NCBI GenBank assembly: GCA_017478965.1 | Contig: JAFVCV010000038.1 | Coordinates: forward strand, 23,977 to 87,976 | DNA from: Ruminococcus sp. | Lineage (GTDB): Bacteria > Bacillota > Clostridia > Oscillospirales > Ruminococcaceae | DNA: 64,000 nucleotides | Reading direction: 5' to 3' | Shown here: positions 37,937-52,508 of the stretch, piece by piece | Numbering within the stretch: the first letter of the stretch is position 1 | Layout of the letters: each line of letters begins with the position of its first letter | Notes under the pieces: model-generated | The model's database searches: none | The model's input: only the letters and a program-made list of their open reading frames with translations | Told to the model about the DNA's origin: nothing | Position numbers and translations under genes: made by a program

Positions 37937-38155
37937 CTAGGCTGCGTCCGACAGGAATTCTCTGTCCTTGAAGAACAGGGATATGCACCAGATGGCCGAA
38001 ACTGCCACCAGGGTGTAGACTATCCTCGACAGCGGTGCGCCCTGACCGCCGAAGATGAAGGCTACCAGGTCGAATTCAAAAATACCCAGCAGGCCCCAGT
38101 TGATGCCTCCGATTATAAGGAGGGCGAGTGCGATCCTGTCTAACATTTTCATCAT
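37937..38155 (-). CDS. DUF378-family small membrane protein
   Basis: LDRIALALLIIGGINWGLLGIFEFDLVAFIFGG is the DUF378 signature. Three closely spaced ATGs (38155, 38152, 38146) follow GGAAAGGA, so the exact start is uncertain. Confidence 0.8.
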   Translation of the reverse strand: MMKMLDRIALALLIIGGINWGLLGIFEFDLVAFIFGGQGAPLSRIVYTLVAVSAIWCISLFFKDREFLSDAA

Positions 38156-38337
38156 TCCTTTCCGTCGGCGGTCATATCCGCCGTTTACCTTAGTATTGCC
38201 TGAGGAAATGAAATAATTCAGGCAGGGAAAATTTTCCTGAATTTTTTTCGGAGTCCGGCGACCGCACCCAGAACGGTTAGTGTTGACTACCGTTAATAGC
38301 ACTATAATAGTATAGTTTATTTTAGCTAAAATTACTA

Positions 38338-38366
38338 TTGAAATGAAGGGGCAAAAATGTTATTAT
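38338..38366 (+). promoter_or_regulatory. Candidate promoter of the TM1266-type regulator gene
   Basis: TTGAAA (38338-38343), a 17-nt spacer, then TGtTATTAT (38361-38366), inside an AT-rich intergenic region. Confidence 0.4.
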
Positions 38367-38431
38367 ATTATTAATATATTAATGGTATACAAGCTTTGCT
38401 TGGCTGAGAAAATGGAAAGGCGGAGGTCGTT

Positions 38432-38677
38432 ATGGAGACAAGAGTTGCTGTTATCGCAATAATAGTTGAGAATGAAAGCTCCGTTGAGGGAGTGAACGCA
38501 CTGCTGCATGAGTACAGCAGCGGTATCATCGGGCGCATGGGCGTTCCCTACAGGGCCAAGGGCGTGAACATCATCAGTATTGCCGTTGACGCCGAGCAGG
38601 ACGTTATTAACACTCTTGCCGGGAAGATAGGCAGGCTCGAGGGCGTTACCGCAAAGACTGTGTATTCGTCTGTATAA
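38432..38677 (+). CDS. TM1266-family putative iron-only hydrogenase system regulator (small ACT/NikR-C-like protein)
   Basis: This 81-aa protein, METRVAVIAIIVEN...LLHEYSSGIIGRMGVPYR...NIISIAVDA...LAGKIGRLEGV, matches my recollection of the TIGR03959-type family found next to hydEFG genes. Its position next to hydF/hydE agrees with this. Confidence 0.7.
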   Translation: METRVAVIAIIVENESSVEGVNALLHEYSSGIIGRMGVPYRAKGVNIISIAVDAEQDVINTLAGKIGRLEGVTAKTVYSSV

Positions 38678-38931
38678 ATGGCGTTTTACAGTACTGGAAA
38701 AAGTTTGTTTGATCGAATTTGATAATTAAAAACCTCCTGACGCCGAAATTTTATTGAGGTGAAAGCGGGATCATACCGAAGTCTGTACATAGGCGGCGGC
38801 TGCAGGGTGATGCGGCGCCGGCGGGCAGGCTTGCTTTGCAGCGGTCAGATCTCTGTTGAACAGGTGATCTGGCTGTTTCTTTTTTGACGAAAACTGCGTC
38901 ACAGCGAGTTTTTAAAGCGGAGAGTGATATT

Positions 38932-40143
38932 ATGGGACTTAACGATACGCCATCGGGGGAGAGGGTACATATAGGGTTTTTCGGCAGGCGCAATGCCGGC
39001 AAGTCCAGTGTGGTCAATGCCTTCACCGGGCAGGAGCTGGCAGTGGTATCCGACACCGCCGGGACCACTACGGACCCGGTCTACAAGGCCATGGAGCTGC
39101 TGCCGATGGGGCCGGTGATGATAATAGACACCCCCGGCTACGACGACGAGGGGAAGCTGGGGGAACTGAGGGTGAAAAAGACCGCTCAGGTCCTTGGGAA
39201 GACCGACTGCGCTGTGCTCGTCGTTGATGCAACGGCAGAGATGGGTGCCTGCGAGGAGCAGCTCGTTGAGCTTTTTGAGAAGAAAAAAATACCTTACATC
39301 ATTACGGTGAACAAGTGCGATCTCTTAGAGAATGTGCCTGAAAATGACGAGGTGCGCATATACGTGAGCGCCAAGGAAAAAATAAACATAACAAAGCTCA
39401 AAGAGCGGGCGGCCCGCCTGGTGAACGTGAGGGAGGAGCAGCGAAGGCTGGTGGGGGACCTTGTTGAGCCGGGAGAATATGCGGTACTGTGCATACCCAT
39501 AGACAAGGCCGCTCCTAAGGGCAGGCTCATACTTCCGCAGCAGCAGGTCATAAGGGACTTGCTGGAGGCCGGGGCCGGAGCCTTCACCTGCCGGGAGACT
39601 GAGCTGAAAGCCTTCCTGTCATCTGCGGCGGCAAGACCTAAAATGGTCATCACTGACAGCCAGGTCTTTGCCAGAGCCGATGCTGACACCCCTAAGGACA
39701 TAAAGCTCACCTCATTCTCCATACTGATGGCCAGATACAAGGGCTTTCTTGACCTTGCAGTCAGAGGGGCCTATGCCATTGATAAGCTCAGAGACGGCGA
39801 CAGAGTGCTGATCTCGGAGGGCTGTACCCACCACCGGCAGTGCGAGGATATCGGCACTGTCAAGCTGCCGAAGCTGCTGAAAAAATACACCGGCGCAGAG
39901 CTGGAGCTTGTTTTCAGCTCAGGGCGTGATTTCCCGGAGGATATGAGCAGCTTTGCCCTTTGCATACACTGCGGAGGATGTATGCTCAATGCCAGGGAGA
40001 TGAACAGCCGTATGCAGACCGTGGAGGACTGCGGGGTGCCGGTGACGAATTACGGCATCGCCATCGCCTACATGAACGGCATACTGAGAAGGAGCCTGGA
40101 GGTACTGCCGGAGACTCTGAAACTGCTTGACGGCGAAGACTGA
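38932..40143 (+). CDS. hydF: [FeFe]-hydrogenase H-cluster maturation GTPase HydF
   Basis: It has G1 GRRNAGKSS, G3 DTPG and G4 NKCD. The C-terminal cluster-binding motif is CTHH...HCGGC. Confidence 0.9.
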   Translation: MGLNDTPSGERVHIGFFGRRNAGKSSVVNAFTGQELAVVSDTAGTTTDPVYKAMELLPMGPVMIIDTPGYDDEGKLGELRVKKTAQVLGKTDCAVLVVDATAEMGACEEQLVELFEKKKIPYIITVNKCDLLENVPENDEVRIYVSAKEKINITKLKERAARLVNVREEQRRLVGDLVEPGEYAVLCIPIDKAAPKGRLILPQQQVIRDLLEAGAGAFTCRETELKAFLSSAAARPKMVITDSQVFARADADTPKDIKLTSFSILMARYKGFLDLAVRGAYAIDKLRDGDRVLISEGCTHHRQCEDIGTVKLPKLLKKYTGAELELVFSSGRDFPEDMSSFALCIHCGGCMLNAREMNSRMQTVEDCGVPVTNYGIAIAYMNGILRRSLEVLPETLKLLDGED

Positions 40144-40162
40144 TTTTACGGAGCGTGATAGA

Positions 40163-41236
40163 ATGACCGCAGCGACCACAGTAAGGGACCTTATCGACAG
40201 GCTGGAGGAGGACAGGGAGCTGAGCCTTGAACAGTGGGAAAGGGTCTTTAAGGAATGGACCGAGGAGGACAGGCTCTATGCCGCCGAAAAGGCCAGGCGG
40301 ACGGCCCTGGAAAACTTCGGGAACAAGATATATATAAGGGGCATAGTCGAATTTTCAAATATCTGTAAGAACGATTGCCTTTACTGCGGCATAAGGGCCT
40401 CAAACAAGGAAGTATCCAGGTACAGGCTCACTGAGGAGGAGATACTCCAGTGCTGCGATGAGGGCTACGGGTACGGTTTTCGCACCTTCGTGCTGCAAAG
40501 CGGAGAGGACAGGTATTTCACCGCCGAAATACTTGCGGGGATCGTCAGGAAGATAAAGGCCGCCCACCCGGACTGTGCGGTGACGCTGTCAGTGGGGGAG
40601 CTTGGGTATGACGAGTATAAGCTGCTGAAGGAGGCCGGGGCAGACAGATATCTGCTAAGGCACGAAACGGCGGACAAGGAGCATTACGGCAGGCTCCACC
40701 CGCCCCAGATGTCCTGGGAGCACAGAATGAGGTGCTTAGAGCAGCTCATGGAGCTGGGTTATCAGGTGGGTGCCGGGATAATGGTAGGCTCGCCCTACCA
40801 GACCGAGAGGTGTCTGGCGGAGGATATGGTCTTTCTGGGGAGCTTTAAACCCCACATGATCGGCATAGGGCCTTTTCTGCCTCATAAGGACACGCCCTTT
40901 AAGGATATGCCTAAGGGTCCCTATGAGCTGACGCTGTTTTTGCTCTCCCTTTGCAGGCTCATGCTGCCGAGGGTCCTGCTGCCGGCCACCACGGCCCTCG
41001 GGACCATCAGGCCGAACGGCCGTGAGCAGGGAGTGCTCTGCGGGGCCAATGTCATCATGCCGAACCTGTCGCCTACGGCGGTGAGGAAGAAATATATGCT
41101 CTACGACAACAAAATCTGTACCGGGGACGAAAGCGCTCAGTGCAGGAGCTGTCTTGAAAGGAGAATGGCTGCCATCGGATACGAGGTCGCCATAACAAGG
41201 GGAGATCATCATGATAAAATTTGCGATATACGGTAA
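40163..41236 (+). CDS. hydE: [FeFe]-hydrogenase H-cluster radical SAM maturase HydE
   Basis: It has the CX3CX2C motif CKNDCLYCG, BioB-like architecture, and [13 protein letters not shown] and IMVGSP motifs. It is adjacent to hydF. Confidence 0.85.
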
Positions 41237-41981
41237 GGGCGGCATAGGAAAGTCCACCATGGCCTGCAATATCTCGGCTGCACTGGCTCTAAAAGGCATG
41301 AGGGTCATGCAGATAGGCTGCGATCCCAAGGCCGATTCCACTTCGCTTCTGCACGGAGGCGAAAGGGTGAGAACGGTGCTGGAACTCATAAGGGAAAAGG
41401 GCGTCGGCAAGGTAGAGCTGGAGGAAACGGTCCATGTCAGTGAACAGGGAGTCATCTGTGTGGAAGCCGGGGGACCCGTACCGGGCCTGGGCTGTGCAGG
41501 CAGGGGCATCATCAGCGCCCTGGAGACTCTGGAAAGACTTGGGGCTTATGAGAAGTACAGGCCGGATGTGGTCATTTACGACGTTCTGGGGGACGTGGTA
41601 TGCGGAGGATTTTCAATGCCTATGAGAAAGGGCTATGCGGATAAGGTCTTCGTAGTGACCTCCGGAGAGAAGATGTCAAGATATGCTGCTGCCAATATCT
41701 GTATGGCAGTGGAAAATTTTAAGGGCAGGGGCTATGCTGCCCTGGGGGGGATCATCCTCAATCGGCGCAGCGTTGCCGGGGAAGATGAGAGCGTGGCCGA
41801 GCTGGCGGAGGATTTCTCCACCAAGGTCATCGGCACCGTGGACCGCAGCGAGGACATCACCGCCGCAGAGGAGAAGGGACAGACCCTTGTGACAGTCTGT
41901 CCTGAAAGCAGGGCAGCCTGCCAGATAAGGGAGACGGCGGAAAGGATAGTTCAGATATGCGGGGGGAAGAGCGATGCTTAA
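41211..41981 (+). CDS. Nitrogenase iron protein-like ATPase (NifH/BchL/CfbC family), copy 1
   Basis: Motifs are [10 protein letters not shown] (P-loop), CDPKADST (switch I), GCAGRG and DVVCGGF (the two [4Fe-4S] Cys). The start overlaps the hydE 3' end by 26 nt and follows AAGGGGAG. Confidence 0.9.
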
Positions 41982-43308
41982 AGATATGCAGAGCTATGAA
42001 AGGCCGCCCTTTGTCACCGTTGATGAGGCTCCGGAGGGGGACCATTTTGCGGGGGGACTGGAGTATAATCCCCCGGCGAGAGGGGTCTGGAACATCGTCC
42101 ATACGGGTATGCTCATACCTGGGGCCCATCAGATATTCGTATGCGCACAGGGCTGTCTCAGGGGCGTTATACTTACCGCCGCAGAGATGGGTATGCTAGA
42201 CAGGCTCAGCTGGGTGTCCGTGTCGGAGGAGGATATGTTCGACGGGACCCTGGAGAGCGATGTTGTGGAAGGAACTGCTGAGATAATCCAAAAGCTCCCG
42301 GAGCGGCCTTCGGAGGTACTGCTGTTTCTGAGCTGCATACATCTTTTTGCCGGGGCGGACTTTGAAGAGATCATCAGGGAGCTTGGCGTAAGGTTTGAGG
42401 ATATCCATTTTACTGACTGCTATATGACGCCCACCATGAGAAAGACCGTCAGCCCCGATGCTAAGATGCGGACACAGCTTTATGAGGGCCTGCGGGCCTG
42501 TCCGATAGATCCGAAGTCTGTGAATATCATAGGCTGCGACAGGCCTACGGACGAAAGCTCTGAGCTGGTGAGGATAATAAAGGAAAACGGCTTTGTGCTA
42601 AGAGACATCACCCAGGCGAAAAGCTATGAGGATTATCAGCAGATGGCAAAGGCGGCTTTCAGCGTGACATATCTTCCGACGGCAAAGGGAGCCGGGGACA
42701 GGCTCAGCGAGCGCTTCGGCAGCAGGAACATCTATATCCCCAACAGGTTCGACCCACAGGGCATAAGGGAGGAACTTTCAAAGCTCTGCGAGGCGCTGGG
42801 AGTTGAGCTGCCAAAGCTGGATGAAGAGGAGAAAAAAGCTATGGAGGCCCTTGAAAAGGCGAGGGAGCTTATCGGGGACACTGCGGTGGCGATAGACTTC
42901 ACTGCGGTCACAAGGCCCTATGAGCTGGCAAAGCTTTTGTGTGAAAAGGGATTCAATGTCAGATATATCGTCAACGATGTACTTGGCGAGGACGTGGAAG
43001 CATTCCGCTGGCTGAAGAAAAACCGGCCCGGGATAAAGATATTCTCGGCCCTGAACGTCAATATGCTCAATGCTGCGGAAAGTGCGGAAAAGTCCGGCGA
43101 GACGGTACTGGCGGTGGGGCAGAAGGCAGCCTTCTTTTTCGCCACGGATAATTTTGTGAACATCGTGGCCAACGGAGGCTATTACGGTTTTAGCGGCATA
43201 AAGGCTATCGCAGAGCTGATGTGCGGCGCTTTCACGGTACCTAAGGACCGCAGGACGGTCATCCAGCATAAGGGCATAGGCTGTTATTCCTGCGTTTATC
43301 AGGACTGA
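41974..43308 (+). CDS. Nitrogenase component-1-like subunit (NifD/NifE/BchN-type), set 1
   Basis: This 444-aa protein has Cys motifs [10 protein letters not shown] and LFLSCIHLF and Rossmann-like repeats typical of the Oxidored_nitro family. It overlaps the preceding NifH-like gene by 8 nt. Confidence 0.72.
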
Positions 43309-43329
43309 CCAAGGATAAGGGGACTGGAT

Positions 43330-44466
43330 ATGAAAAACGTTTCTACTGTCATTCCCTGCTATGCGGCGGATACCTCCGGGGTCTGCTCGGCTCTTTATGA
43401 GCTGGGAGGACTGACGGTGGTCCATGACGCATCGGGATGCAATTCCACCTATTCGACACATGACGAGCCCAGGTGGTACGATAAAAGGTCAATGATATAT
43501 ATTTCTGCCTTAACGGAGATGGACGCCGTTATGGGAAACGATGAAAAGCTCATCCTTGACACCGTGGCGGCAGCGGCGGACCTGCGGCCGGAGTTCATAA
43601 CTCTCTGCGGGTCTCCAATGCCGATGATGACCGGTTTTGATTACGATGCGGCGGCGGCTGAGATAGAGGAAAGGTCCGGGATAAAATGTCTTCCCATGCA
43701 CACCAACGGCACCAGGTCCTATATCGAGGGAGCATCGGAGGCGTTTCTGGCGGCAGTGAAGGCCTTTGCCAAAGAGGGACCCAAGGTGGAAAACGGCGTT
43801 GCGGTCCTGGGGGCCACGCCGCTGGACTTCGGTCTGAGCGGAAGTATCGGGAGCATAAGGACCTGGCTCGGGGAACGGGGCTTTGAGACAGTTTCCTGCC
43901 TGGCTGTGGACAGTTCTTTCAAGGATCTGGAAAGGGCCGCACTGGCTAAGGTCAGCCTGGTGGTGTCCCAGTCGGGACTGGCGGCGGCGAAGTATCTGGA
44001 AAAGGAGTTCGGGATACCCTATGTCTGCGGGGTCCCCTACGGGAAGAAGTATGCAGAGCGGGTGGAAAGGTATCTGAGATGGGCCATGGAGGACAATGAG
44101 ACTGACTGGGTGGACGAGCGCAGCGGCAGGGACTTCGACACCGTGGTCATCGGTGAAACGGTGTCGGCATTTTCACTTTGCTCCGCCCTTTACTGGGACC
44201 TTGGCATAGACGCCGCAGTGATATGTCCGCTGCCGTATGAGGAAGGCAGGCTGGGCCGGGACCTTGCAATGAGCGCCGAGGAGGACATAAAGGCATTTCT
44301 GGAGGAATGCAGGCCCGCCAGAGTCATTGCGGACCCGCTGTACAGATACGTGGTGCCAAAGGACACAAGGCTCACAGAGCTGCCGCATTTCGCATTTTCG
44401 GGGCGGTGTTTCGGGCAAAGGATACCCGACCTTATAAATAAGGATATCAAGGAGTTTTTTGAATGA
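43330..44466 (+). CDS. Nitrogenase component-1-like subunit (NifK/NifN/BchB-type), set 1
   Basis: This 378-aa protein carries [26 protein letters not shown] and [13 protein letters not shown], an Oxidored_nitro-type pattern. It is paralogous to the protein at 46513-47550. Confidence 0.72.
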
Positions 44467-45224
44467 TAAAGCTGGCAATTTACGGTAAGGGCGGTATAGG
44501 GAAATCCACCTGCACCGCCAACTTAGCGGCGGCCTTCGCCACACTGGGAAAGCGGGTCATACAGATAGGCTGTGACCCCAAGGCGGATTCGACCATTAAT
44601 ATCCTGGGCGGGACCCCGGTCATGCCTGTGATGGACCATATGAGAGAGCATGACGAGGAGCCTAAGACTATAGAGGAGATCTCCAGGTCAGGATTCGGCG
44701 GCATACTCTGTATAGAGACCGGAGGCCCCACGCCGGGCCTTGGCTGCGCAGGCCGGGGCATAATCACGACATTTTCTCTGCTGGAGGAGCTGGAGCTTTT
44801 TGAGAAGTTCAAGCCTGACGTGGTGCTTTACGACGTGTTGGGAGACGTGGTCTGCGGCGGCTTTGCGGCGCCCATAAGAGAGGGCTATGCCGATAAGGTG
44901 CTGATAGTTACCTCAGGGGAAAAGATGGCGCTTTACGCCGCCAATAACATCAGCAAGGCGGTGAAGAATTTCGAGGACCGCAGCTACGCCAAGGTCAGGG
45001 GGATGATCCTGAACCGCCGCAGCGTAGAGAACGAAGAGGAGAAGGTCAGGGCATTTGCCGAAAGCGCCGGGCTGGACATCGTGGCGGATATACCAAGATC
45101 CGCAGATATAATAAAGTATGAGGACATGGGAAAGACCGTCATTGAGGGGGACCCTCAGTGCGAGACTTCACAGCGGTTCTTTGAGCTGGCAAGGCTTCTC
45201 ATAAGAGAGGAGGAGGGCCGGTGA
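44463..45224 (+). CDS. Nitrogenase iron protein-like ATPase (NifH/BchL/CfbC family), copy 2
   Basis: Motifs [24 protein letters not shown] and DVVCGGF are present. The start overlaps the preceding gene as ATGA. Confidence 0.9.
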
Positions 45225-46516
45225 GGGAGGCTTTTTATATAACGGCCAAGGACCTGAGCGCCCGAGGGCCTGAGAATATCCCCGGCGAGCTGCAAAGTGC
45301 AAAGCATATGATCTACAGCTCGCCTGCCACTCTGGACTTCAATTCTCCGGGAGCAAAGGGCTTTGGGGTAAAGCGGGCCGGACTGGCGGTGCCGGGTTCG
45401 GTGATGCTGCTGGTGGCGCCGGGGTGCTGCGGAAGGAATACGGCGCTGCTCAACGAGCTTGGCTACAGCGAGAGATTTTTCTATCTTCTTCTTGACGACA
45501 CCGACATCGTTACCGGCAGGCATCTGACGAAGATCCCGGCGGCCTGTGAAGAGATCTGTGAGGAGCTCGGGGATAAGCCCTCGGCCATAATGATCTGTAT
45601 AACCTGCGTTGACGCTCTGCTGGGGACGGATATGGAAAGAGTCTGCCGCAAATGCGAGGAAAAGACCGGGGTCCCGGCGGTGCCGGCCTATATGTATGCG
45701 CTCACCAGGGAGAAGAGACTTCCTCCCATGGCGGCGGTGAGAAAGTCGGTGTATTCCCTTTTGAGACCCCAGGCAAGAAAGAGCAATGAGTGCGCTCTGA
45801 TGGGCTATTTTGCACCAATGGAGGACGGCTGTGAGATATATGAGCTGCTGAGAAAAGCCGGGATAAAAAAGATACACGAGCTGGGAAGATGCCGGACCTT
45901 TGAGGAATACAGCATGATATCAAGGGCGAATTTCAGCCTGGTGCTGAACCCGGAGGCCAGATATGCCGCACAGGATATGCAGGACCGGTTAGGGATACCG
46001 TTTATCGAGATGGTAAGGCTTTACAGGCTGGACAAGATAAGAAACCAGTACAGGCTCTTAGGGCAGGCCATCGGGGCAGAGCTCGACGATGGGGAATATT
46101 ACGAAAAGGCCCGCAGGACCGTGGAAGATTTCAGGGAGAAGTACAAAGCGCTGACTTTCGCAGTGGGAGAGTCTCTCAATGCTGACAGCTTTGAGTTAGC
46201 GCTCTCGCTGTTAAGCTTCGGGTTCAAGGTAAGCGAGATCTACGGCACCGTGGGAGAGCGCAATTTCGTTTTCGTCAGAAAGCTCGCAGAGCTTTCTCCC
46301 GACACCAGGATATTCTCGAACCTTTCGCCCACCATGATGAACTATGAGCGAAGGACCGGGATAGATGCTGTTATCGGGGCTGACGCCGGCTATTATCATA
46401 AGGACCTGCCCTGTGTGCAGTTCAATGACGAGAAACAGCCCTTCGGCTATTTCGGGGTCATAAAGCTATTCACAGAGCTGGATAAAGCCCTGGAGGGCAG
46501 GAGGGAGAGACAATGA
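45221..46516 (+). CDS. Nitrogenase component-1-like subunit (NifD/NifE/BchN-type), set 2
   Basis: This 431-aa protein has Cys motifs VAPGCCGRN and [12 protein letters not shown]. The GTG start overlaps the NifH-like copy 2 stop (GTGA) and follows GAGGAGGAGGG. Confidence 0.68.
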
Positions 46517-47550
46517 AAAAGCTTTTGAAACATATCTCGCCTTTAGCCCCGGACGATTCGGGGGCCTGCTCGGTGCTTTATGAAATGGGCGGAATAACCG
46601 TGATCTGTGACGCCGGGGGCTGTGCGGGGAACGTATGCGGGTTTGACGAACCCAGGTGGTCTGAGAAACCGTCGGCGCTCTTCAGTGCAGGACTCAGGGA
46701 TATGGACGCTATACTGGGCCGTGACGACAGGCTGGTGGAAAAGCTGACGAAATGCTGTGAGCAGGTAGATGGCCGCTTCACTGCCATCGTGGGGACGCCT
46801 GTGCCGGCGGTCATAGCCACGGACTACAAGGCTCTGAAAAGAATGGCTGAGAAAAAGACCGGGCTGCCCTGCATAACTGTTCCCACAGACGGCACCAGGC
46901 TTTACGACTGCGGGGAGGAGCGGGCTTATATGGCCCTTTTCGAGGAATTTGCAGTGAAGAGACACGAGGTGAAAAAAGGCCGGGCGGCAGTTATCGGAGC
47001 AACGCCCCTTGACACCGGTTTTTTAAGGGCGGATAAGCTCATCGGGAACGTCAGGGCGATGGGTCTTGATGAAGTCGTCTGCATAGGCCTTGACAGCGGT
47101 CTTGAAGAGGTGGAGAACATCTCATCGGCAGAAAAGCTCATCGTCATATCTCCTGCCGGGATAAGGCCGGCGGGATATCTGCACGAGAAATTCGGTACAG
47201 AGGTCATTTACGCTTACCCCTGTCTGCCGGAGGAGGTCGTGAGTGAATGTAAAAAACTCAGGGGTAAAAAGGTGCTTATCATCCATGAACAGATGGCTGC
47301 CAACGCCCTGAGGGAGCTTATAGAGGAAGATAATCAGGCGGACTGTGCTACATTCTTTATGGCGGAGGAGAGCCTTTCAAAGCCGGGGGATATCAAGATC
47401 GCCGGTGAAGACGACCTCAGGGAAAAGACCGCTCAACGGGGATATGAGGTCATCGTAGCTGACAAATTCTTTTCAAGGGCCTTGGGGGGATTTGAAGGGC
47501 AGTGGATAGATTTTCCCCACAACGCCGCCTCTGGCAGACTGAGACAGTAA
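46513..47550 (+). CDS. Nitrogenase component-1-like subunit (NifK/NifN/BchB-type), set 2
   Basis: This 345-aa protein carries DDSGACSVLYEMGGITVICDAGGCAGNVCGFDEPRW, clearly paralogous to 43330-44466. The start overlaps the preceding gene as ATGA. Confidence 0.72.
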   Translation: MKKLLKHISPLAPDDSGACSVLYEMGGITVICDAGGCAGNVCGFDEPRWSEKPSALFSAGLRDMDAILGRDDRLVEKLTKCCEQVDGRFTAIVGTPVPAVIATDYKALKRMAEKKTGLPCITVPTDGTRLYDCGEERAYMALFEEFAVKRHEVKKGRAAVIGATPLDTGFLRADKLIGNVRAMGLDEVVCIGLDSGLEEVENISSAEKLIVISPAGIRPAGYLHEKFGTEVIYAYPCLPEEVVSECKKLRGKKVLIIHEQMAANALRELIEEDNQADCATFFMAEESLSKPGDIKIAGEDDLREKTAQRGYEVIVADKFFSRALGGFEGQWIDFPHNAASGRLRQ

Positions 47551-47562
47551 ACGCCGGTAACA

Positions 47563-49911
47563 ATGGGGATCTTTAAGGACGGTGAGGGATTGAAGGCTTA
47601 CAATATACACGTTTACGGCATCGTGCAGGGTGTGGGGTTCAGACCCTTCACTGCGGTCACTGCGGACCGCCTGGGCATCAGGGGGACGGTGGCCAACAAA
47701 GGGTCCTATGTGGATATCTTCGCTTATGGAGAAGAGGAGGACGTCAGGGCTTTCGCAGAGGAGATAAGGGAAAGGCCCCCGGAAAGGGCCATGGTCCTGG
47801 GGGTCGATCTTATAGAGCTTGCTGAGGGCCGGGGAAAAGTACCGGAGAGCTTTGAGATAATCGAGAGCGAAAAGGAGTACGGGGACATTTTCGTATCTCC
47901 GGATATCGCCACCTGCGACAGCTGCCGGAGGGAGCTTTTCGACCCTGAGGACCGCAGGTATCTCCACCCTTTCATAAACTGCACCCAGTGCGGTCCCAGG
48001 CTGACCATACTTGACACCATGCCCTACGACAGGATAAGGACTTCCATGGGAGAATTTCCCATGTGCGAAAAATGCGCAGCTGAATACAACGACCCGGTCA
48101 CAAGGCGCTATGACGCACAGCCGGTGTGCTGCAACGACTGCGGACCGGAGGTCTATATCATCGGGGAGGACCTCAGGGGCGCCGAGGCTATAAAAAAAGT
48201 CCGCCGGGCCATAATGGAGGGGAAGATAGCTGCCATAAAGGGCATAGGCGGCTTTCACTTATGCTGCGACGCTAAGAACAGCCGTGCAGCGGCCAGGCTC
48301 AGAGAGCTCAAAAGCAGGCCCGCCAAGCCCTTTGCGGTCATGATGAGGGATATGGACACGGTAAGCAGATACTGCCGCCTTAAACCGGGGCAGGAGGCTT
48401 ATCTGACCGGCTGGCAGAAACCGATAATGCTACTGGAGAAAAAAGAGGGCTGCGGCCTTTGTGACGAGGTGGCACCGGGCAACCCAACGGTGGGGGTCAT
48501 GCTGCCTTATGCTCCTGTGCAGATGCTGTTATTCGGCTATCCGGACGGAACGGAGATGACGGACTGCCTTATCATGACCAGCGGGAATGTCAGAGGAGCG
48601 CCCATCTGCCGCAGTGACGAGGACGCAGTGAAGGAGATAGGGAGCTTTTGCGACACTATCCTTTCCCACAACAGGAAGATACTGATACGCTCCGACGACA
48701 GCGTCACCGACTGGCTTTTTGACAGGCCCTATATGATAAGGCGCTCAAGGGGATTTGCGCCCCTGCCGGTCATGATGAAGGAGCGCTCTGACAGGCAGGT
48801 GCTTGCCATCGGCGGCGAGCTGAAAAACACCTTCTGCATAGGCCGGGGGGGACTGCTGTACCCCTCCTCTTATGTGGGCGACATGGGGGATATACGCACC
48901 GTGAAGGCTCTGGAGGAAAGCATAAGGCGTATGTGCGGACTGCTGGAGACTGAGCCGGAGCTGATAGTCTGCGACAAGCACCCTAAGTATAATACAGTCC
49001 GATTCGCCAAAGAGCTGGCTGAGCAGCGGGGAGTGCCTTTGCTGGAAGTACAGCACCACTACGCTCATGTGCTGAGCGTCATGGCGGAGAATCGGGTAAG
49101 GCCGGAGACAAAGGTGATAGGTCTGAGCTTTGACGGCACCGGCTACGGCGATGACGGGACCGTCTGGGGGGGAGAGATCTTCCTGTGCGACGGCAGGAGC
49201 TATGAGCGCCGGGGCAGCGTCAAGTCCTTTATGCAGGTCGGCGGCGATCTGAGCGCTAAGGAGGGATGGAGGATAGCGGCGGCTGTACTAAAAGACTTTG
49301 CCGGGGACGCACAGGAGCTTGTTGAAAGCCTGGGGCTTTGCACACCGCAGGAATACAGGCTCCTTGGGACCATGGCCGACAAGGGTCTCAACAGCGTAAG
49401 GTCCACCAGCTGCGGAAGGCTTTTTGACGGCGTTTCAGCCATACTTGGCATCAGGCGAAGCTCGACTTTCGAGGGTGAGGCCTCTACGGCGCTGATGTTT
49501 GAGGCAGAGGCCTTTGAGAAGGAAAACGGGGGCCGGGAGGAGTATGAGGGGCAGGAAAAGCTCATCAGGTATGAGGACGGTTTTGTTACCCTTTGCACCT
49601 CGGCGCTGCTGACGGATATCGCCAGGAAATTCTCGAAGGACCCACGTCCTGAGAACGCCCGGAGGCTTGCCTACAGGTTCCATGCAGTTTTAGCGGATAT
49701 GGCGGCGGAGGCCTGCGGAAGGCTCATGGCGGACAGCGGCGTAAGGCTCTGTGCCCTGACGGGGGGAGTATTCCAGAACCGGCTGCTCACAAGGCTCTGT
49801 CGGGAAAGACTCGAAAAGGCCGGGGCGGAGGTGCTCCTTCACAGCCTTATACCGCCCAATGACGGCGGGCTGGCCTTAGGACAGGCCTATTACGGGATAT
49901 ACAGTAAATAA
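47563..49911 (+). CDS. hypF: Carbamoyltransferase HypF
   Basis: It has an acylphosphatase domain (VYGIVQGVGFRPF) and two zinc-finger pairs (CDSC...CTQCGPR, CEKC...CNDCGP). A YrdC-like domain (IKGIGGFHL) and a Kae1-like C-terminal domain are also present. Confidence 0.92.
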   Translation: MGIFKDGEGLKAYNIHVYGIVQGVGFRPFTAVTADRLGIRGTVANKGSYVDIFAYGEEEDVRAFAEEIRERPPERAMVLGVDLIELAEGRGKVPESFEIIESEKEYGDIFVSPDIATCDSCRRELFDPEDRRYLHPFINCTQCGPRLTILDTMPYDRIRTSMGEFPMCEKCAAEYNDPVTRRYDAQPVCCNDCGPEVYIIGEDLRGAEAIKKVRRAIMEGKIAAIKGIGGFHLCCDAKNSRAAARLRELKSRPAKPFAVMMRDMDTVSRYCRLKPGQEAYLTGWQKPIMLLEKKEGCGLCDEVAPGNPTVGVMLPYAPVQMLLFGYPDGTEMTDCLIMTSGNVRGAPICRSDEDAVKEIGSFCDTILSHNRKILIRSDDSVTDWLFDRPYMIRRSRGFAPLPVMMKERSDRQVLAIGGELKNTFCIGRGGLLYPSSYVGDMGDIRTVKALEESIRRMCGLLETEPELIVCDKHPKYNTVRFAKELAEQRGVPLLEVQHHYAHVLSVMAENRVRPETKVIGLSFDGTGYGDDGTVWGGEIFLCDGRSYERRGSVKSFMQVGGDLSAKEGWRIAAAVLKDFAGDAQELVESLGLCTPQEYRLLGTMADKGLNSVRSTSCGRLFDGVSAILGIRRSSTFEGEASTALMFEAEAFEKENGGREEYEGQEKLIRYEDGFVTLCTSALLTDIARKFSKDPRPENARRLAYRFHAVLADMAAEACGRLMADSGVRLCALTGGVFQNRLLTRLCRERLEKAGAEVLLHSLIPPNDGGLALGQAYYGIYSK

Positions 49912-49931
49912 ATTTCAAGGAGGATAAATAT

Positions 49932-50141
49932 ATGTGTGTTGGATTGTCTGCAAAGGTAGTCAGCGTTAAGGACGGTACTGCGGTCATAGACGCCAGCGGT
50001 GCAAAGAGAGAGGTCAGCGCTGACCTTTTAGAGGAGCTGGAGCCTGGGGATTATGTGATGGTACACGCTGGGGTAGCCATCGCCAAGATCACCCAGAGCG
50101 ATGATGAAGAAACTGAGACTCTGCTTGAGGACCTGATATGA
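49932..50141 (+). CDS. hypC: Hydrogenase maturation chaperone HypC/HupF family
   Basis: This 69-aa protein starts MCVG (conserved Cys2) and contains GDYVMVHAG. Confidence 0.85.
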   Translation: MCVGLSAKVVSVKDGTAVIDASGAKREVSADLLEELEPGDYVMVHAGVAIAKITQSDDEETETLLEDLI

Positions 50142-51190
50142 ACGAGAGCATCAAAAACGCCCGTGACATCATCACGGGCTACAAGGGAAGAAAACTAAGG
50201 ATAATGGAGGTCTGCGGCACCCATACCCACGAGATCTTCCGTTTAGGCATCAGAAAGCTACTGCCGGAGCAGGTGGACCTCATCTCGGGACCGGGCTGTC
50301 CGGTGTGCGTTACTGCGGTGGGCTTTATCGACGAGGCTGTCTGGCTGACCCTGGAGAAAGGCTGCACGGTCTGCACCTTCGGAGATCTTATCAGGGTACC
50401 GGGGACGGAGATGAGCCTGGCCGGGGCAAGGTCTGAGGGCGGTAAGATAAAGGCGGTCTACTCGCCCCTGGACGCTGTGGACTTTGCCGAGAAGGAACCG
50501 CAGGAGCAGGTGGTGTTCCTTGCAGTGGGCTTTGAGACCACTACGCCCTCGGCCTGCCTTGCGGTGAAGACTGCGCAGAAAAAGGGGCTGAAAAACTTCA
50601 GTATCCTCACTGCCAACAAGACCATGCCCAACGCCTATAACGCTCTGGTGGGAAGTGCAGACGCATTTCTATACCCGGGCCATGTGAACGCCATCACCGG
50701 CAACGCAGTCTGCAAAAAGCTCTGCGAGGATAAGGGCGTTTCAGGAGTGGTGGCAGGATTTACGGCAGGGGAGCTGCTGACGGCAATGGCGGTGACGCTG
50801 ACCCTTGCTGACAAGGGGGAGCCATTTTTCAGGAACTGCTACCCCAGAGTGGTGAAGGACGAGGGCAATATCCCCGCACAAAAGCTCATCGCAGAGGTTA
50901 TGGAGCCTTGCGACAGCGAATGGAGGGGGTTAGGGCTTATCCCCATGTCGGGCATGAGACTGAGGGAGGAGTATGCTGAGTTCGACGCCCGCAAGAAGTA
51001 CCGGATGCCAAAGATCACCGGCCGGCCCAACCCGGCCTGCCGCTGCGGCGATGTTTTGCAGGGCAAGTGCAAGCCCTCGGACTGCAAGGTCTTCGGCAAG
51101 GTCTGCACCCCCCAGCACCCCATCGGCGCCTGCATGGTCTCCGATGAAGGAGCCTGTTCGGCATACTATCAGTATTCAGGCCTGGTCTGA
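50138..51190 (+). CDS. hypD: Hydrogenase formation protein HypD
   Basis: Motifs MEVCGTHTH, GPGCPVCV, GFETT and PGHVNAITG are present, along with a C-terminal Cys cluster (CRCG...CKPSDC...CTP...GACMVSDEGAC). The start overlaps hypC as ATGA. Confidence 0.92.
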   Translation: MNESIKNARDIITGYKGRKLRIMEVCGTHTHEIFRLGIRKLLPEQVDLISGPGCPVCVTAVGFIDEAVWLTLEKGCTVCTFGDLIRVPGTEMSLAGARSEGGKIKAVYSPLDAVDFAEKEPQEQVVFLAVGFETTTPSACLAVKTAQKKGLKNFSILTANKTMPNAYNALVGSADAFLYPGHVNAITGNAVCKKLCEDKGVSGVVAGFTAGELLTAMAVTLTLADKGEPFFRNCYPRVVKDEGNIPAQKLIAEVMEPCDSEWRGLGLIPMSGMRLREEYAEFDARKKYRMPKITGRPNPACRCGDVLQGKCKPSDCKVFGKVCTPQHPIGACMVSDEGACSAYYQYSGLV

Positions 51191-51205
51191 TACTTTACAC
51201 AGCAT

Positions 51206-51246
51206 AAAAATAAGCCGGAGTTCGCCTGAACTCCGGCCTTTTCGTT
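51206..51246. terminator. Bidirectional terminator between hypD and the convergent DUF1015 gene
   Basis: GCCGGAGTT (51214-51222) pairs with AACTCCGGC (51229-51237). AAAAA lies upstream and CTTTTCGTTT lies downstream. Confidence 0.78.
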
Positions 51247-52508
51247 TATCCTGAAATTTTTCTTGCCTCAACATAGAAACGCTTATCCTCAGCGTGGCCC
51301 ATCGAGAAAGTCTTCCTAGGCAGGGCGCCGTCACAGATGACCGTGGGGAAAAGCTCGCTCTTGTGCATATCCGGCAGGAGGAAACCTACGGAATTCTCCT
51401 TCTTTGAAAGCTCCCTTACAACATCGGCCCCGTGGATATAGTCCACCTTGCCGCCCATCTCGGGCAGCAGCTTGTCAAGGGCGGACTGAAGCGAACCTAC
51501 CGCCAGTTTTGAAAGCGGCGCATGGACATAGACCGTTCGCTCTTCGCCGTTTTCAACCACGGTTATCCTTTGCCCGCTCTCCTCTTCCCTCAGGTCGAGC
51601 TTTTCCGTGAGCTTTTCCAGCAGCAGGCTCACGTCCACATTAGTGACTATCCTGTGGATAGCCTCGAATTCCAGGGCGGGGGAGTGGAGGTCCACTATCT
51701 CTGCAAGGGCGTACCTTGCCGGGTGGCCCGAAAGGTCCTTTCCAGGCTCCTTCTGTTTCAGCGTCTCATAGAACTCCTTTGCAGTGGCAAGGCTGTGATT
51801 GCCGTCGCCCATGGCAAAGGTCAGGGGAGCGGTGCCTTCCATGCCGTATCTTTCCTTAAAGGCCTCAGGCGAGGAGAACTTCTCCAGTCTTTCCATGATC
51901 CCGGCCCTGGTCGTTTCATCGATAAGCCAGCCCTCGACCTTTCCGCCGCCGGCCATCAGCTCAAAGCTATAGAGCTTTTCAAAGCCTTCTTTCTTAGCGG
52001 CAAGGGGTTCGATGATCTCTTTCTTCACATCGTCAATGAGTATCATGATATGGGGCAGCTCGATGGGGGCGCCCTTTCTTATCTTCATCCTTGGCGGTAT
52101 CCTCTCCACCACGGTGGCCTCGGTGGCCCTTACCTGGGACTCGCTGCCCTTATAGTATTCGTACTGTGTAAGGTCGATGGCTCCCACCACGCCGGCTCTC
52201 AGCTTGCCGTCGGACTGGGTCCTTTCCACGTAGATAAGGGCATCTTTATATTCAATGAAAACTCCCTCGTCAAGATACTCCTTCATGGTGCGGTGTATGC
52301 GGTCTATCCTGTATTCCAGCCCGGGGGCTTCCAGGTAGACCTCGGGCAGTATGAGCTTGTAGGCGGACCTTTCGTCCCCTACCAGCTTTTCCACTTTCTC
52401 CCAGTACTCCGGCTCTGAGGTGTACTGGTCGCAGGCCACAACTGCCCATTTGTTCATATCGGTGTCCTTCGGCAGCAGTATGTCTGCCGGGGTGAATGCC
52501 AAACTCAT
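51246..52508 (-). CDS. DUF1015-family protein
   Basis: This 420-aa protein has the N-terminus FTPADILLPKD...WAVVACDQYTSEPEYW and GDGNHS and FLLPDM motifs that I associate with DUF1015. Confidence 0.75.
   Translation of the reverse strand: MSLAFTPADILLPKDTDMNKWAVVACDQYTSEPEYWEKVEKLVGDERSAYKLILPEVYLEAPGLEYRIDRIHRTMKEYLDEGVFIEYKDALIYVERTQSDGKLRAGVVGAIDLTQYEYYKGSESQVRATEATVVERIPPRMKIRKGAPIELPHIMILIDDVKKEIIEPLAAKKEGFEKLYSFELMAGGGKVEGWLIDETTRAGIMERLEKFSSPEAFKERYGMEGTAPLTFAMGDGNHSLATAKEFYETLKQKEPGKDLSGHPARYALAEIVDLHSPALEFEAIHRIVTNVDVSLLLEKLTEKLDLREEESGQRITVVENGEERTVYVHAPLSKLAVGSLQSALDKLLPEMGGKVDYIHGADVVRELSKKENSVGFLLPDMHKSELFPTVICDGALPRKTFSMGHAEDKRFYVEARKISG

Follow-up and report, generated by a model that had tools for sequence, protein, structure and literature searches.

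Background

The maturation of [FeFe]-hydrogenases is taught as strictly dependent on HydE, HydF and HydG: HydG turns tyrosine into an Fe(CO)2(CN)-cysteinate synthon, HydE dimerises it, and HydF completes and delivers the product. In the Hyp system carbamoyl phosphate serves HypF and HypE as the source of cyanide, which is loaded on iron bound by HypC and HypD (HypCD). The source of the CO ligand in anaerobes is a long-standing question; nitrogenases and NifH can reduce CO2 to CO. The subject of this paper is an operon in which genes of both maturation systems flank two trios of nitrogenase-like genes, at positions 41211-47550 of a 64,000-nucleotide stretch of DNA from Ruminococcus sp. (contig JAFVCV010000038.1; the whole stretch is called the window below). 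Each trio, or set, encodes a NifH-like protein (H1 or H2), a NifD/E-like subunit (D1 or D2) and a NifK/N-like subunit (K1 or K2).

A Firmicute 'NifHEN-like' clade (Coprococcus catus GD/7, Dorea longicatena), with two linked copies of NifH/E/N-like genes beside hydrogenase maturation genes, has been described by Dos Santos et al. (2012, BMC Genomics 13:162). Its D/E-like subunit has two cysteines (the equivalents of aC88 and aC154) and its K/N-like subunit one (the equivalent of bC95), and a role in the assembly of a hydrogenase active site was suggested. The window has the same arrangement and the same pattern of 2 Cys + 1 Cys, and by these two marks its sets are almost certainly members of that group. 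The same study described importer-linked nitrogenase-like trios of the C. botulinum, C. cellulovorans and Methanocorpusculum types, and in some Clostridium acetogens the presence of HypCDEF without HypAB, with HydG not found, has been recorded as unexplained (PMC9431212). Our literature searches returned this acetogen observation and the 2012 study only, with no functional test, no report of complementarity with HydG and no follow-up of the arrangement. The gene arrangement is already known; the complementarity with HydG, the link with orphan Hyp genes, the two-module architecture and the importer variant, all described below, appear to be new.

Compared with the canonical HydE/HydF/HydG system, the window has in common a TM1266-like protein, HydF, HydE and the [FeFe]-hydrogenase client; HydG is absent, and in its stead there are the two trios with hypF and hypC (eight extra genes), plus hypD and hypE. 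We consider it highly probable that the trios take part in hydrogenase metallocofactor maturation and favour, with a good deal less assurance, the reading that the system substitutes for HydG.

Distribution of the operon and of HydG

The operon is read from the forward strand in the order TM1266-like gene, hydF, hydE, H1-D1-K1, H2-D2-K2, hypF, hypC, hypD, with neighbouring genes from hydE through hypD overlapping or sitting at most 26 nt apart. HypE is encoded outside the window by a solitary gene on another contig of the genome (C24:127535-128542); its product ends in PRIC and scores above the curated cut-off. As in the HypCDEF system of [NiFe]-hydrogenase maturation, these HypF, HypC, HypD and HypE proteins keep their signature motifs and exceed their cut-offs. 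The genome has four PF00148 genes, all of them in the operon, within which neither a hydrogenase structural gene nor a gene of tetrapyrrole or sulfur metabolism was found. The first-pass annotation of this DNA covered 41211-47550 only, and the flanking hydF-hydE and hypF-hypC-hypD genes lay outside it.

Orthologues were surveyed by scanning one genome per species. This returned 133 D1 relatives, and the best 80 of the 133 loci were examined, the state of the cluster being judged as far as the contigs reach (about 60 loci are long enough for both sets). The same cluster occurs in all of these best 80 loci, and the operon is kept in at least 80 species, most of them Ruminococcus or other Oscillospiraceae. 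Among the sources are strains of Ruminococcus albus, numerous Ruminococcus from rumen and gut, other Oscillospiraceae and Hominimerdicola, together with Clostridium aromativorans, C. lapidicellarium, a Lachnospiraceae metagenome-assembled genome (MAG) and a Synergistaceae member with a complete chromosome. Several families and two phyla are represented among the carriers, and a phylogenetic tree shows transfer between Clostridium and Synergistaceae. Within the window's genus, 18 of 19 genomes carry the cluster.

HydG is absent from the window's genome, which is 92.8% complete; the sole match to the HydG model is HydE itself, at 68 bits. None of the 12 carriers searched in the genus has HydG (0/12), and HydG is present, at 932 bits, in the only genome of the genus that does not carry the cluster (G007), which has no HypE. 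The result is the same for the genomes that hold the fetched loci (0/50; with the window's own genome added, n=51). About half of the carriers have a ThiH-like match of 170-230 bits that is without the C-terminal part of HydG. A divergent HydG hidden among the radical-SAM genes was considered and rejected, as in the window's genome only HydE matches and about half of the carriers have only these ThiH-like partial matches. The catalytic domain of [FeFe]-hydrogenases (PF02906) is found in 50 of the 51 carriers, and HypE is present in them, while the large subunit of [NiFe]-hydrogenases (PF00374) is absent from 48 of the 51, including the window's genome. The latter therefore has HydE and HydF without HydG, and HypC, HypD, HypE and HypF with no PF00374 client found for them.

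A sample of 399 genomes drawn evenly from the class, of which 258 are HydF+, gives a similar picture. All carriers of a D2 orthologue are HydF+/HydG- (7/7), and 238 of the 251 other HydF+ genomes have HydG (Fisher p = 5.6e-9); among these 238 HydF+/HydG+ genomes not one D2 orthologue was found. In a single genus (g85), four carriers are without HydG and three non-carriers have it, the two being mutually exclusive. Because carriers span families and two phyla, and the tree shows transfer, the association between HydG and the cluster has arisen or been maintained repeatedly, though the genomes are not independent of one another. Thirteen HydF+/HydG- genomes remain: five carry set 1 only and are described below, and eight have either no PF00148 gene or nitrogenase-type ones only, four of these eight being 65-92% complete (G142, G199, G218 and G403). 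Two HydF+ genomes without HydG, G143 (L085) and G142 (L086 and L096), carry nitrogenase-like pairs that score 200-310 bits with PF00148 and fall below the NifD/E cut-offs; the neighbour of the G142 pair is a cysteine-synthase-like gene, a hint at a system of the Mar or sulfur type.

R. albus makes H2 by [FeFe]-hydrogenases (PMC6776011). The counterpart of the operon in R. albus 7, assigned by annotation order, is Rumal_0542-0556. Published RNA-seq data show transcripts of all its genes, their levels being moderate and much alike, in H2-producing pure culture as well as in co-culture, with fold changes of about 1 (PMC6776011 supplement).

Two modules and an importer-linked variant

The two sets can be separated. 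In two genomes (G101 and G423) the order is H2D2K2-hypF-C-D-E-H1D1K1, so that set 1 follows hypE. Set 2 is always contiguous with hyp genes, and set 1 adjoins hydE/hydF or the TM1266-like gene, both in window-type loci and in five operons that carry set 1 only (G435, L097; G187, L098; G444, L099; G335, L100; G448, L101; genomes 84-100% complete, with two PF00148 genes each). The first-pass annotation had taken the tandem trios to argue for a two-step pathway rather than redundancy. The sets are indeed ancient and non-redundant, as shown in the next section, but trios are not always in tandem, and a description as two modules, each linked with a different set of hydrogenase-maturase genes, fits better.

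In the set-1-only operons TM1266/hydE-H1-D1-K1 is followed by genes for a FecB/BtuF-type binding protein, a permease and an ATPase, with hydF seen in G435 and G448. All five genomes are HydF+, without HydG and without set 2 (hyp genes elsewhere in these genomes were not searched for). Their D1 proteins nest in the D1 clade beside those of G101 and G423, and a loss of set 2 and Hyp would be the simplest history of these genomes. A further genome (G424, L102:6585-14117) has a deep-branching H-D-K trio of a third type, with 34% identity of its D protein to D2 and 32% of its K protein to K1, and with members of the same importer family, two binding proteins among them, on either side; this genome has HydG. 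Like the importer-linked trios described in 2012, the set-1-only operons and the G424 trio carry the importer beside the K gene, whereas the operon of the window and the other two-set loci have set 2 and HypFCDE instead. No FecB/BtuF-type importer was found in the window's genome or in two-set loci. An importer in place of a biosynthetic module is a classic signature of salvage; because the importer here seems to replace the module of set 2 and Hyp, set 2 with HypFCDE would act upstream and set 1 with HydE/HydF downstream.

The trios as ancient paralogues

Two complete H-D-K trios are present where the first-pass annotation had placed them, as six open reading frames (ORFs) on the forward strand with Pfam matches, and the D- and K-like proteins are as short as it had said (345-444 aa). 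Identity is 52% between H1 and H2, 24% between D1 and D2 (E 2e-30) and 29% between K1 and K2 (E 2e-48), the last pair having already been called paralogues. D1/D2 and K1/K2 are mutual best relatives, and matches between D and K proteins are only marginal. Duplication of the trio was therefore an ancient event that took in all three genes at once, and both copies have been retained together.

In the maximum-likelihood tree the D1 and D2 sequences are reciprocally monophyletic, each clade being strongly supported (99% by the Shimodaira-Hasegawa-like approximate likelihood ratio test, SH-aLRT), with stems of 1.6-1.75 substitutions per site. Branching within the two clades is largely congruent, as the R. 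albus group, the L016/L020/L044 group, the L072/L075/L065 group and the group of Clostridium (L073), Synergistaceae (L076), G101 and G423 recur in both. Both sets are inherited together in the roughly 60 loci of sufficient length, with set 2 the more conserved across loci (75-91% identity for H2 vs 60-78% for H1, and 60-78% for D2 vs 45-66% for D1). The first-pass annotation had proposed a tree to test whether the sets are ancient paralogues found together in other genomes, and the tree indicates that they are. It had named, as the finding that would speak against it, a recent duplication with near-identical ligand sets; this is not seen, the sets having diverged and their Cys patterns being different. 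The difference between the sets in conserved Cys patterns favours two different jobs over redundancy.

Relation to nitrogenase-like proteins and conserved residues

Proteins were called with Pfam (PF00142, Fer4_NifH; PF00148, Oxidored_nitro) and with the curated cut-offs of NCBIfam/TIGR, and conservation of Cys was counted over 64-80 orthologues per family (76 for H1, 66 for H2 and 70 close ones for K1). H1 and H2 are of the NifH-type fold, and each set has two PF00148 subunits, all four above the cut-off. Both H proteins have the P-loop, the switch regions and the cluster cysteines C95 and C131, the two cysteines being invariant in the 76 H1 and 66 H2 orthologues, and both look functional, in agreement with the earlier reading of their catalytic hallmarks.

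None of the six proteins reaches a curated score for Nif, NifEN, dark-operative protochlorophyllide oxidoreductase (DPOR), chlorophyllide oxidoreductase (COR) or CfbCD. H1 and H2 score 304.6 and 312.4 bits with the nifH model (cut-off 394), 293 and 298.7 bits with CfbC (402), 184-212 bits with BchL (345) and 183-196 bits with BchX (331). For the other subunits the scores are about 20 bits with BchN (420), about 51 bits with BchB (490), 38-66 bits with nifE (505; D2 gives 65.8), at most 30.6 bits with nifD (654) and, for K2 only, 18.6 bits with CfbD (268); the nifN and nifK models gave no match. AlphaFold2 models of D1 and D2 (mean predicted local distance difference test, pLDDT, of 86 and 86.6) have the nitrogenase component-1 fold. 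In Foldseek searches they resemble NifD, NifK, NifE, NifN, Mar and BchB alike, with template modelling (TM) scores of 0.55-0.70 (0.6-0.68 for D1) that do not discriminate between these families. The likeness to the Mar structures 9fmg_A and 9d9u is one of fold only (TM 0.56-0.69, 15-18% identity). A phmmer search of D1 against PDB sequences gave no match, and profile searches against PDB gave weak partial alignments to NifE, VnfD and BchB that stop short of the N-terminal Cys motifs.

With the pairs NifEN and NifDK, and DPOR and COR, the window shares paralogous component-1-type subunits that would form heteromers, NifH-type ATPases to serve them and two non-redundant sets that would work in one pathway, and the best PDB sequence matches of its D proteins include NifE. 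Each set has an H protein of its own, as in DPOR and COR and unlike NifEN. Against these likenesses, identity over the structure alignments is 12-19%, the curated models are missed, there is no ligand of the FeMo-co type, and hydrogenase maturases take the place of Nif or Bch proteins as partners. The analogies with BchLNB/BchXYZ and NifHDK/NifEN drawn in the first-pass annotation consequently do not hold at the level of families: no cut-off of NifD/K/E/N, BchN/B/Y/Z or CfbC/D is reached, and the cofactor-ligand Cys of NifD/VnfD (aC275 equivalent) is missing, with a gap in D2 opposite LLCHRS and a Leu in D1 opposite NCARSS of VnfD.

The Cys motifs that had been quoted for D1 and D2 are real, their positions being invariant or nearly so. 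D1 has conserved Cys at C57, C61, C121 and C149 and in a C-terminal GCxSC (C437 and C440), the latter forming a tail that is modelled with low confidence and is presumably flexible; D2 has them at C69, C70, C126, C129, C142, C145, C191, C204 and C224. Conserved in K1 are C19, D33 and C37, and in K2 C19, C32, D33, C37, C42, C120 and C190, with C37 and C42 making up the invariant extra Cys pair noted earlier. Mapping of ligands by alignment retains, family-wide, only two canonical interface-cluster cysteines of D (C61/C70 and C121/C129) and one of K (C37). D1 C121 and D2 C129 align with the Cys of the NifE motif NTCVPALIGDD, and K C37 with that of HGAQGC in the NifN part of a NifEN fusion. The set of six cysteines that holds a P-cluster (three from D, three from K) and the cofactor Cys are not kept. 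More than 90% of K1 and K2 sequences, and all K1 checked of the set-1 type, keep D33, near C37, so that two Cys of D with C37 and D33 of K are putative ligands of a DPOR-type interface cluster (three Cys and one Asp), judging from the sequences. The extra, family-specific cysteines (C57, C149 and GCxSC in D1; C69, C126, C142/C145, C191, C204 and C224 in D2) are candidates for a second metal site or a site of ligand handling.

A candidate ligand difference had also been seen between K1 (ITLCGSPMP) and K2 (AIVGTPVP), that is, C93 against V93. C93 is indeed present in 70 of 70 close K1 sequences, and K2 has no Cys at 93. It is, however, limited to the Ruminococcus-type subgroup, being replaced by A or G in six distant set-1 K1 (the five set-1-only genomes and G423), and was therefore rejected as a family-wide ligand difference.

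A possible route to the Fe-CO/CN unit and its alternatives

The balance tips slightly towards a route to the Fe-CO/CN unit of the H-cluster that consists of two modules and does without HydG. How its steps might be divided among HypFCDE, set 2 and set 1 can be set out only tentatively. HypF and HypE would derive cyanide from carbamoyl phosphate and transfer it to an iron on HypC/HypD, as happens in [NiFe] maturation. Set 2 would supply ATP-coupled low-potential electrons to complete this iron unit, its most likely task being the supply or addition of CO by reduction of CO2. Set 1 could then take over or convert the unit, perhaps on C57 and C149 of D1 together with its flexible GCxSC tail, and pass it to HydE/HydF for dimerisation and installation of the bridge. 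In set-1-only genomes the product of the first module could be imported instead of made. Taken as a whole, a tyrosine-independent synthesis of Fe(CO)x(CN) in which CN comes from HypF/HypE, CO from set-2 reduction on HypCD iron and the hand-over from set 1, and in which cells that lost set 2 and Hyp import, through a dedicated ABC transporter, an intermediate stable enough to pass from cell to cell, is conceivable and rather doubtful.

Several points weigh against a replacement of HydG by these modules. All support for it is comparative, and the roles of the modules are drawn from gene linkage only. Many carriers are MAGs and are phylogenetically clustered, so that the Fisher p value overstates their independence. 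HydG can be missing, or missed, without the system, since eight HydF+/HydG- genomes have neither set. The family as a whole is not tied to loss of HydG, since G424 has a third-type trio together with HydG. As to the chemistry, HypCDEF makes Fe(CN)2(CO) and the HydG synthon is Fe(CO)2(CN), so that the change of ratio needs an additional step; ordinary anaerobes make the CO ligand of the Hyp system without nitrogenase-like proteins; and the set-1-only genomes apparently do without set 2. Finally, residue 215 of D1 in the window (42616-42618) is Ala, where 99% of 80 D1 orthologues have Cys and all D2 have the aligned C224. Either this Cys is dispensable in D1, or the window's D1 is slightly impaired. 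The D1 of G335 is also without Cys at this position (Phe).

Among the alternatives, it is unlikely, though worth weighing, that HypFCDE and one trio acting as a scaffold build a CO/CN-iron cofactor for the other trio, which would be an end enzyme with an unknown reduction to perform, the hydrogenase cofactor being made otherwise. A scaffold role for such pairs was raised by Dos Santos et al. (2012, BMC Genomics 13:162), the extra invariant Cys of the D proteins are compatible with a second metal site, and wherever the two-set form occurs both sets are inherited together; the set-1-only genomes, however, lack the supposed partner trio. The lack of a hydrogenase structural gene in the operon also fits, but hydE, hydF and the TM1266-like gene in it are left unexplained, as is the place of set 1 between them in set-1-only operons. 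So is the absence of HydG from every carrier, with HydA, HydE and HydF kept.

Rather improbable is a role of the trios as helpers, either as ATP-driven electron donors or in the delivery or repair of iron or Fe-S for HydE/HydF and HypCD, the chemistry of HydG being replaced by, for example, scavenged precursors or free CO/CN. According to work cited in PMC9431212, about 1% activation is reached with ambient diatomics when HydF is loaded by HydE only, but functional replacement is the simpler explanation of the strict complementarity with HydG, and two complete, specialised reductase sets plus HypFCDE would be a heavy investment for help of this kind. A coupling of metal transport to cofactor assembly has been suggested (Dos Santos et al. 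2012, BMC Genomics 13:162), and a FecB/BtuF-type importer of metal chelates is linked with trios of set 1 and of the third type; this importer is nevertheless absent from the window's genome and from two-set loci.

It is very improbable that the trios are reductases of a tetrapyrrole or organosulfur substrate (DPOR/COR-, CfbCD- or Mar-like) that lie next to maturase genes by accident. The 2 Cys + 1 Cys pattern (with Asp33) resembles the interface cluster of DPOR, and the general component-1 fold is as close to DPOR as to Mar and NifEN (TM 0.6-0.7). The BchL/N/B/X/Y/Z and CfbC/D models are nonetheless far below their cut-offs, no gene of tetrapyrrole or sulfur metabolism accompanies the trios, and the linkage with hyd and hyp genes is kept across families, phyla and rearrangements of gene order, which would not be expected of chance neighbours. 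A cryptic N2-fixing nitrogenase with a NifEN scaffold is hardly credible, even though pipelines annotate Rumal_0546 and Rumal_0549 as 'nitrogenase' and rumen surveys count such nifH matches as putative nitrogenases (PMC6776011), as the nifH, nifD, nifK, nifE and nifN models are far below cut-off, the cofactor-ligand Cys is missing, the genome has just the four PF00148 genes with proteins of 345-444 aa, and N2 fixation in the rumen is negligible (PMC6776011).

Features of the operon and variation at other loci

The features of the operon are collected in Table 1. From the promoter-like site to the terminator-like hairpin its genes make up a single compact operon, and between 38700 and 51190 on the forward strand there is no terminator-like site of comparable strength. 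In the spacer between the TM1266-like gene and hydF (~250 nt, 38678-38931) an Rfam scan gave nothing credible. The TM1266-like gene heads the cluster in 66 of the 80 loci. With 69 codons, hypC was missed by the ORF list.

Table 1. Predicted features of the operon, with positions in the window
Feature	Position	Strand	Basis and remarks
Promoter-like site, TTGAAA-17-TATTAT with TG	38338..38366	+	5' of the TM1266-like gene; best consensus match in 38000-51600; pattern match only
TM1266-like small ACT-type protein ('iron-only hydrogenase system regulator, putative')	38432..38677	+	TIGR03959, 108.6 bits (cut-off 60.8); PF21699
HydF, [FeFe]-hydrogenase H-cluster maturation GTPase	38884..40143	+	TIGR03918, 548.5 bits (cut-off 325.6); HydF dimer and tetramer domains; start of listed ORF is TTG at 38884, putative
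HydE, radical-SAM H-cluster maturase	40127..41236	+	TIGR03956, 550 bits (cut-off 254.6); 26-nt overlap with H1
H1, set-1 NifH-like ATPase/reductase, 256 aa	41211..41981	+	PF00142, 286.8 bits, E 2e-85
D1, set-1 NifD/E-like subunit, 444 aa	41974..43308	+	PF00148, 70.1 bits; no NCBIfam equivalog
K1, set-1 NifK/N-like subunit, 378 aa	43330..44466	+	PF00148, 103.7 bits
H2, set-2 NifH-like ATPase/reductase, 253 aa	44463..45224	+	PF00142, 297.3 bits, E 1e-88; start overlaps K1 stop (ATGA)
D2, set-2 NifD/E-like subunit, 431 aa	45221..46516	+	PF00148, 99.2 bits
K2, set-2 NifK/N-like subunit, 345 aa	46513..47550	+	PF00148, 64.3 bits
HypF carbamoyltransferase (acylphosphatase, Zn fingers, YrdC and Kae1 domains)	47563..49911	+	TIGR00143, 722 bits (cut-off 466)
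HypC chaperone, begins MCVG (Cys2)	49932..50141	+	TIGR00074, 61.4 bits (cut-off 48); 4-nt overlap with hypD
HypD, with CGTHTH and GPGCPVC motifs	50138..51190	+	TIGR00075, 405.5 bits (cut-off 192.8)
Bidirectional terminator-like hairpin, 12 pairs, closing the operon	51212..51239	.	Follows hypD

The position of hypE varies at other loci. L052 and L054 have it within the nif-like block, where it separates D1 from K1; in L011 it is also within the block and separates H2 from K2; elsewhere it follows hypD. Passenger genes on the same strand fill short gaps at several loci (e.g. L014, L016, L021, L025, L028, L037, L044, L055 and L058), encoding GNAT acetyltransferases, S-adenosylmethionine (SAM) methyltransferases, small membrane proteins and SMI1-like proteins. 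These wedged, variable genes were considered as conserved partners and rejected, being, apart from hypE, unrelated passengers. R. albus-type loci have two or three paralogous genes for proteins of ~170-225 aa between hydF and hydE.

In C. aromativorans (L073:9152-11251) and C. lapidicellarium (L074:9158-11251), H1 and D1 form a single ORF of 700 aa, which would be a natural fusion; we know of no fusion of a NifH-like protein with a D subunit in characterised nitrogenase-like systems. Several genomes of the window's genus, though not the window's own, have a third PF00148 gene in a frame of ~490-520 aa. R. albus 7 has a second 'oxidoreductase/nitrogenase component 1' pair (Rumal_0520-0524), beside ABC-transporter genes and a LysR regulator, whose expression varies strongly between replicates (PMC6776011 supplement).

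Conclusions

NifH matches in 23% of rumen reference genomes have been counted as putative nitrogenases and as possible sources of H2 (PMC6776011), and NifH-like genes of the operon type described here are probably among them. If a second route to the H-cluster does exist, such counts of nifH-like genes in the rumen and gut would need revising (PMC6776011). A large branch of the nitrogenase superfamily that is as yet uncharacterised would gain its first function, as would 'orphan' HypCDEF. The route may also bear on where anaerobes obtain the CO ligand, and a tyrosine-independent maturation cassette could aid the heterologous production of hydrogenases. A second route would explain how the H-cluster is built in Ruminococcus albus and its relatives without HydG, which are major producers of H2 in the rumen and gut, and perhaps in the acetogens of PMC9431212. 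The finding makes the building of the H-cluster in organisms without HydG directly testable.

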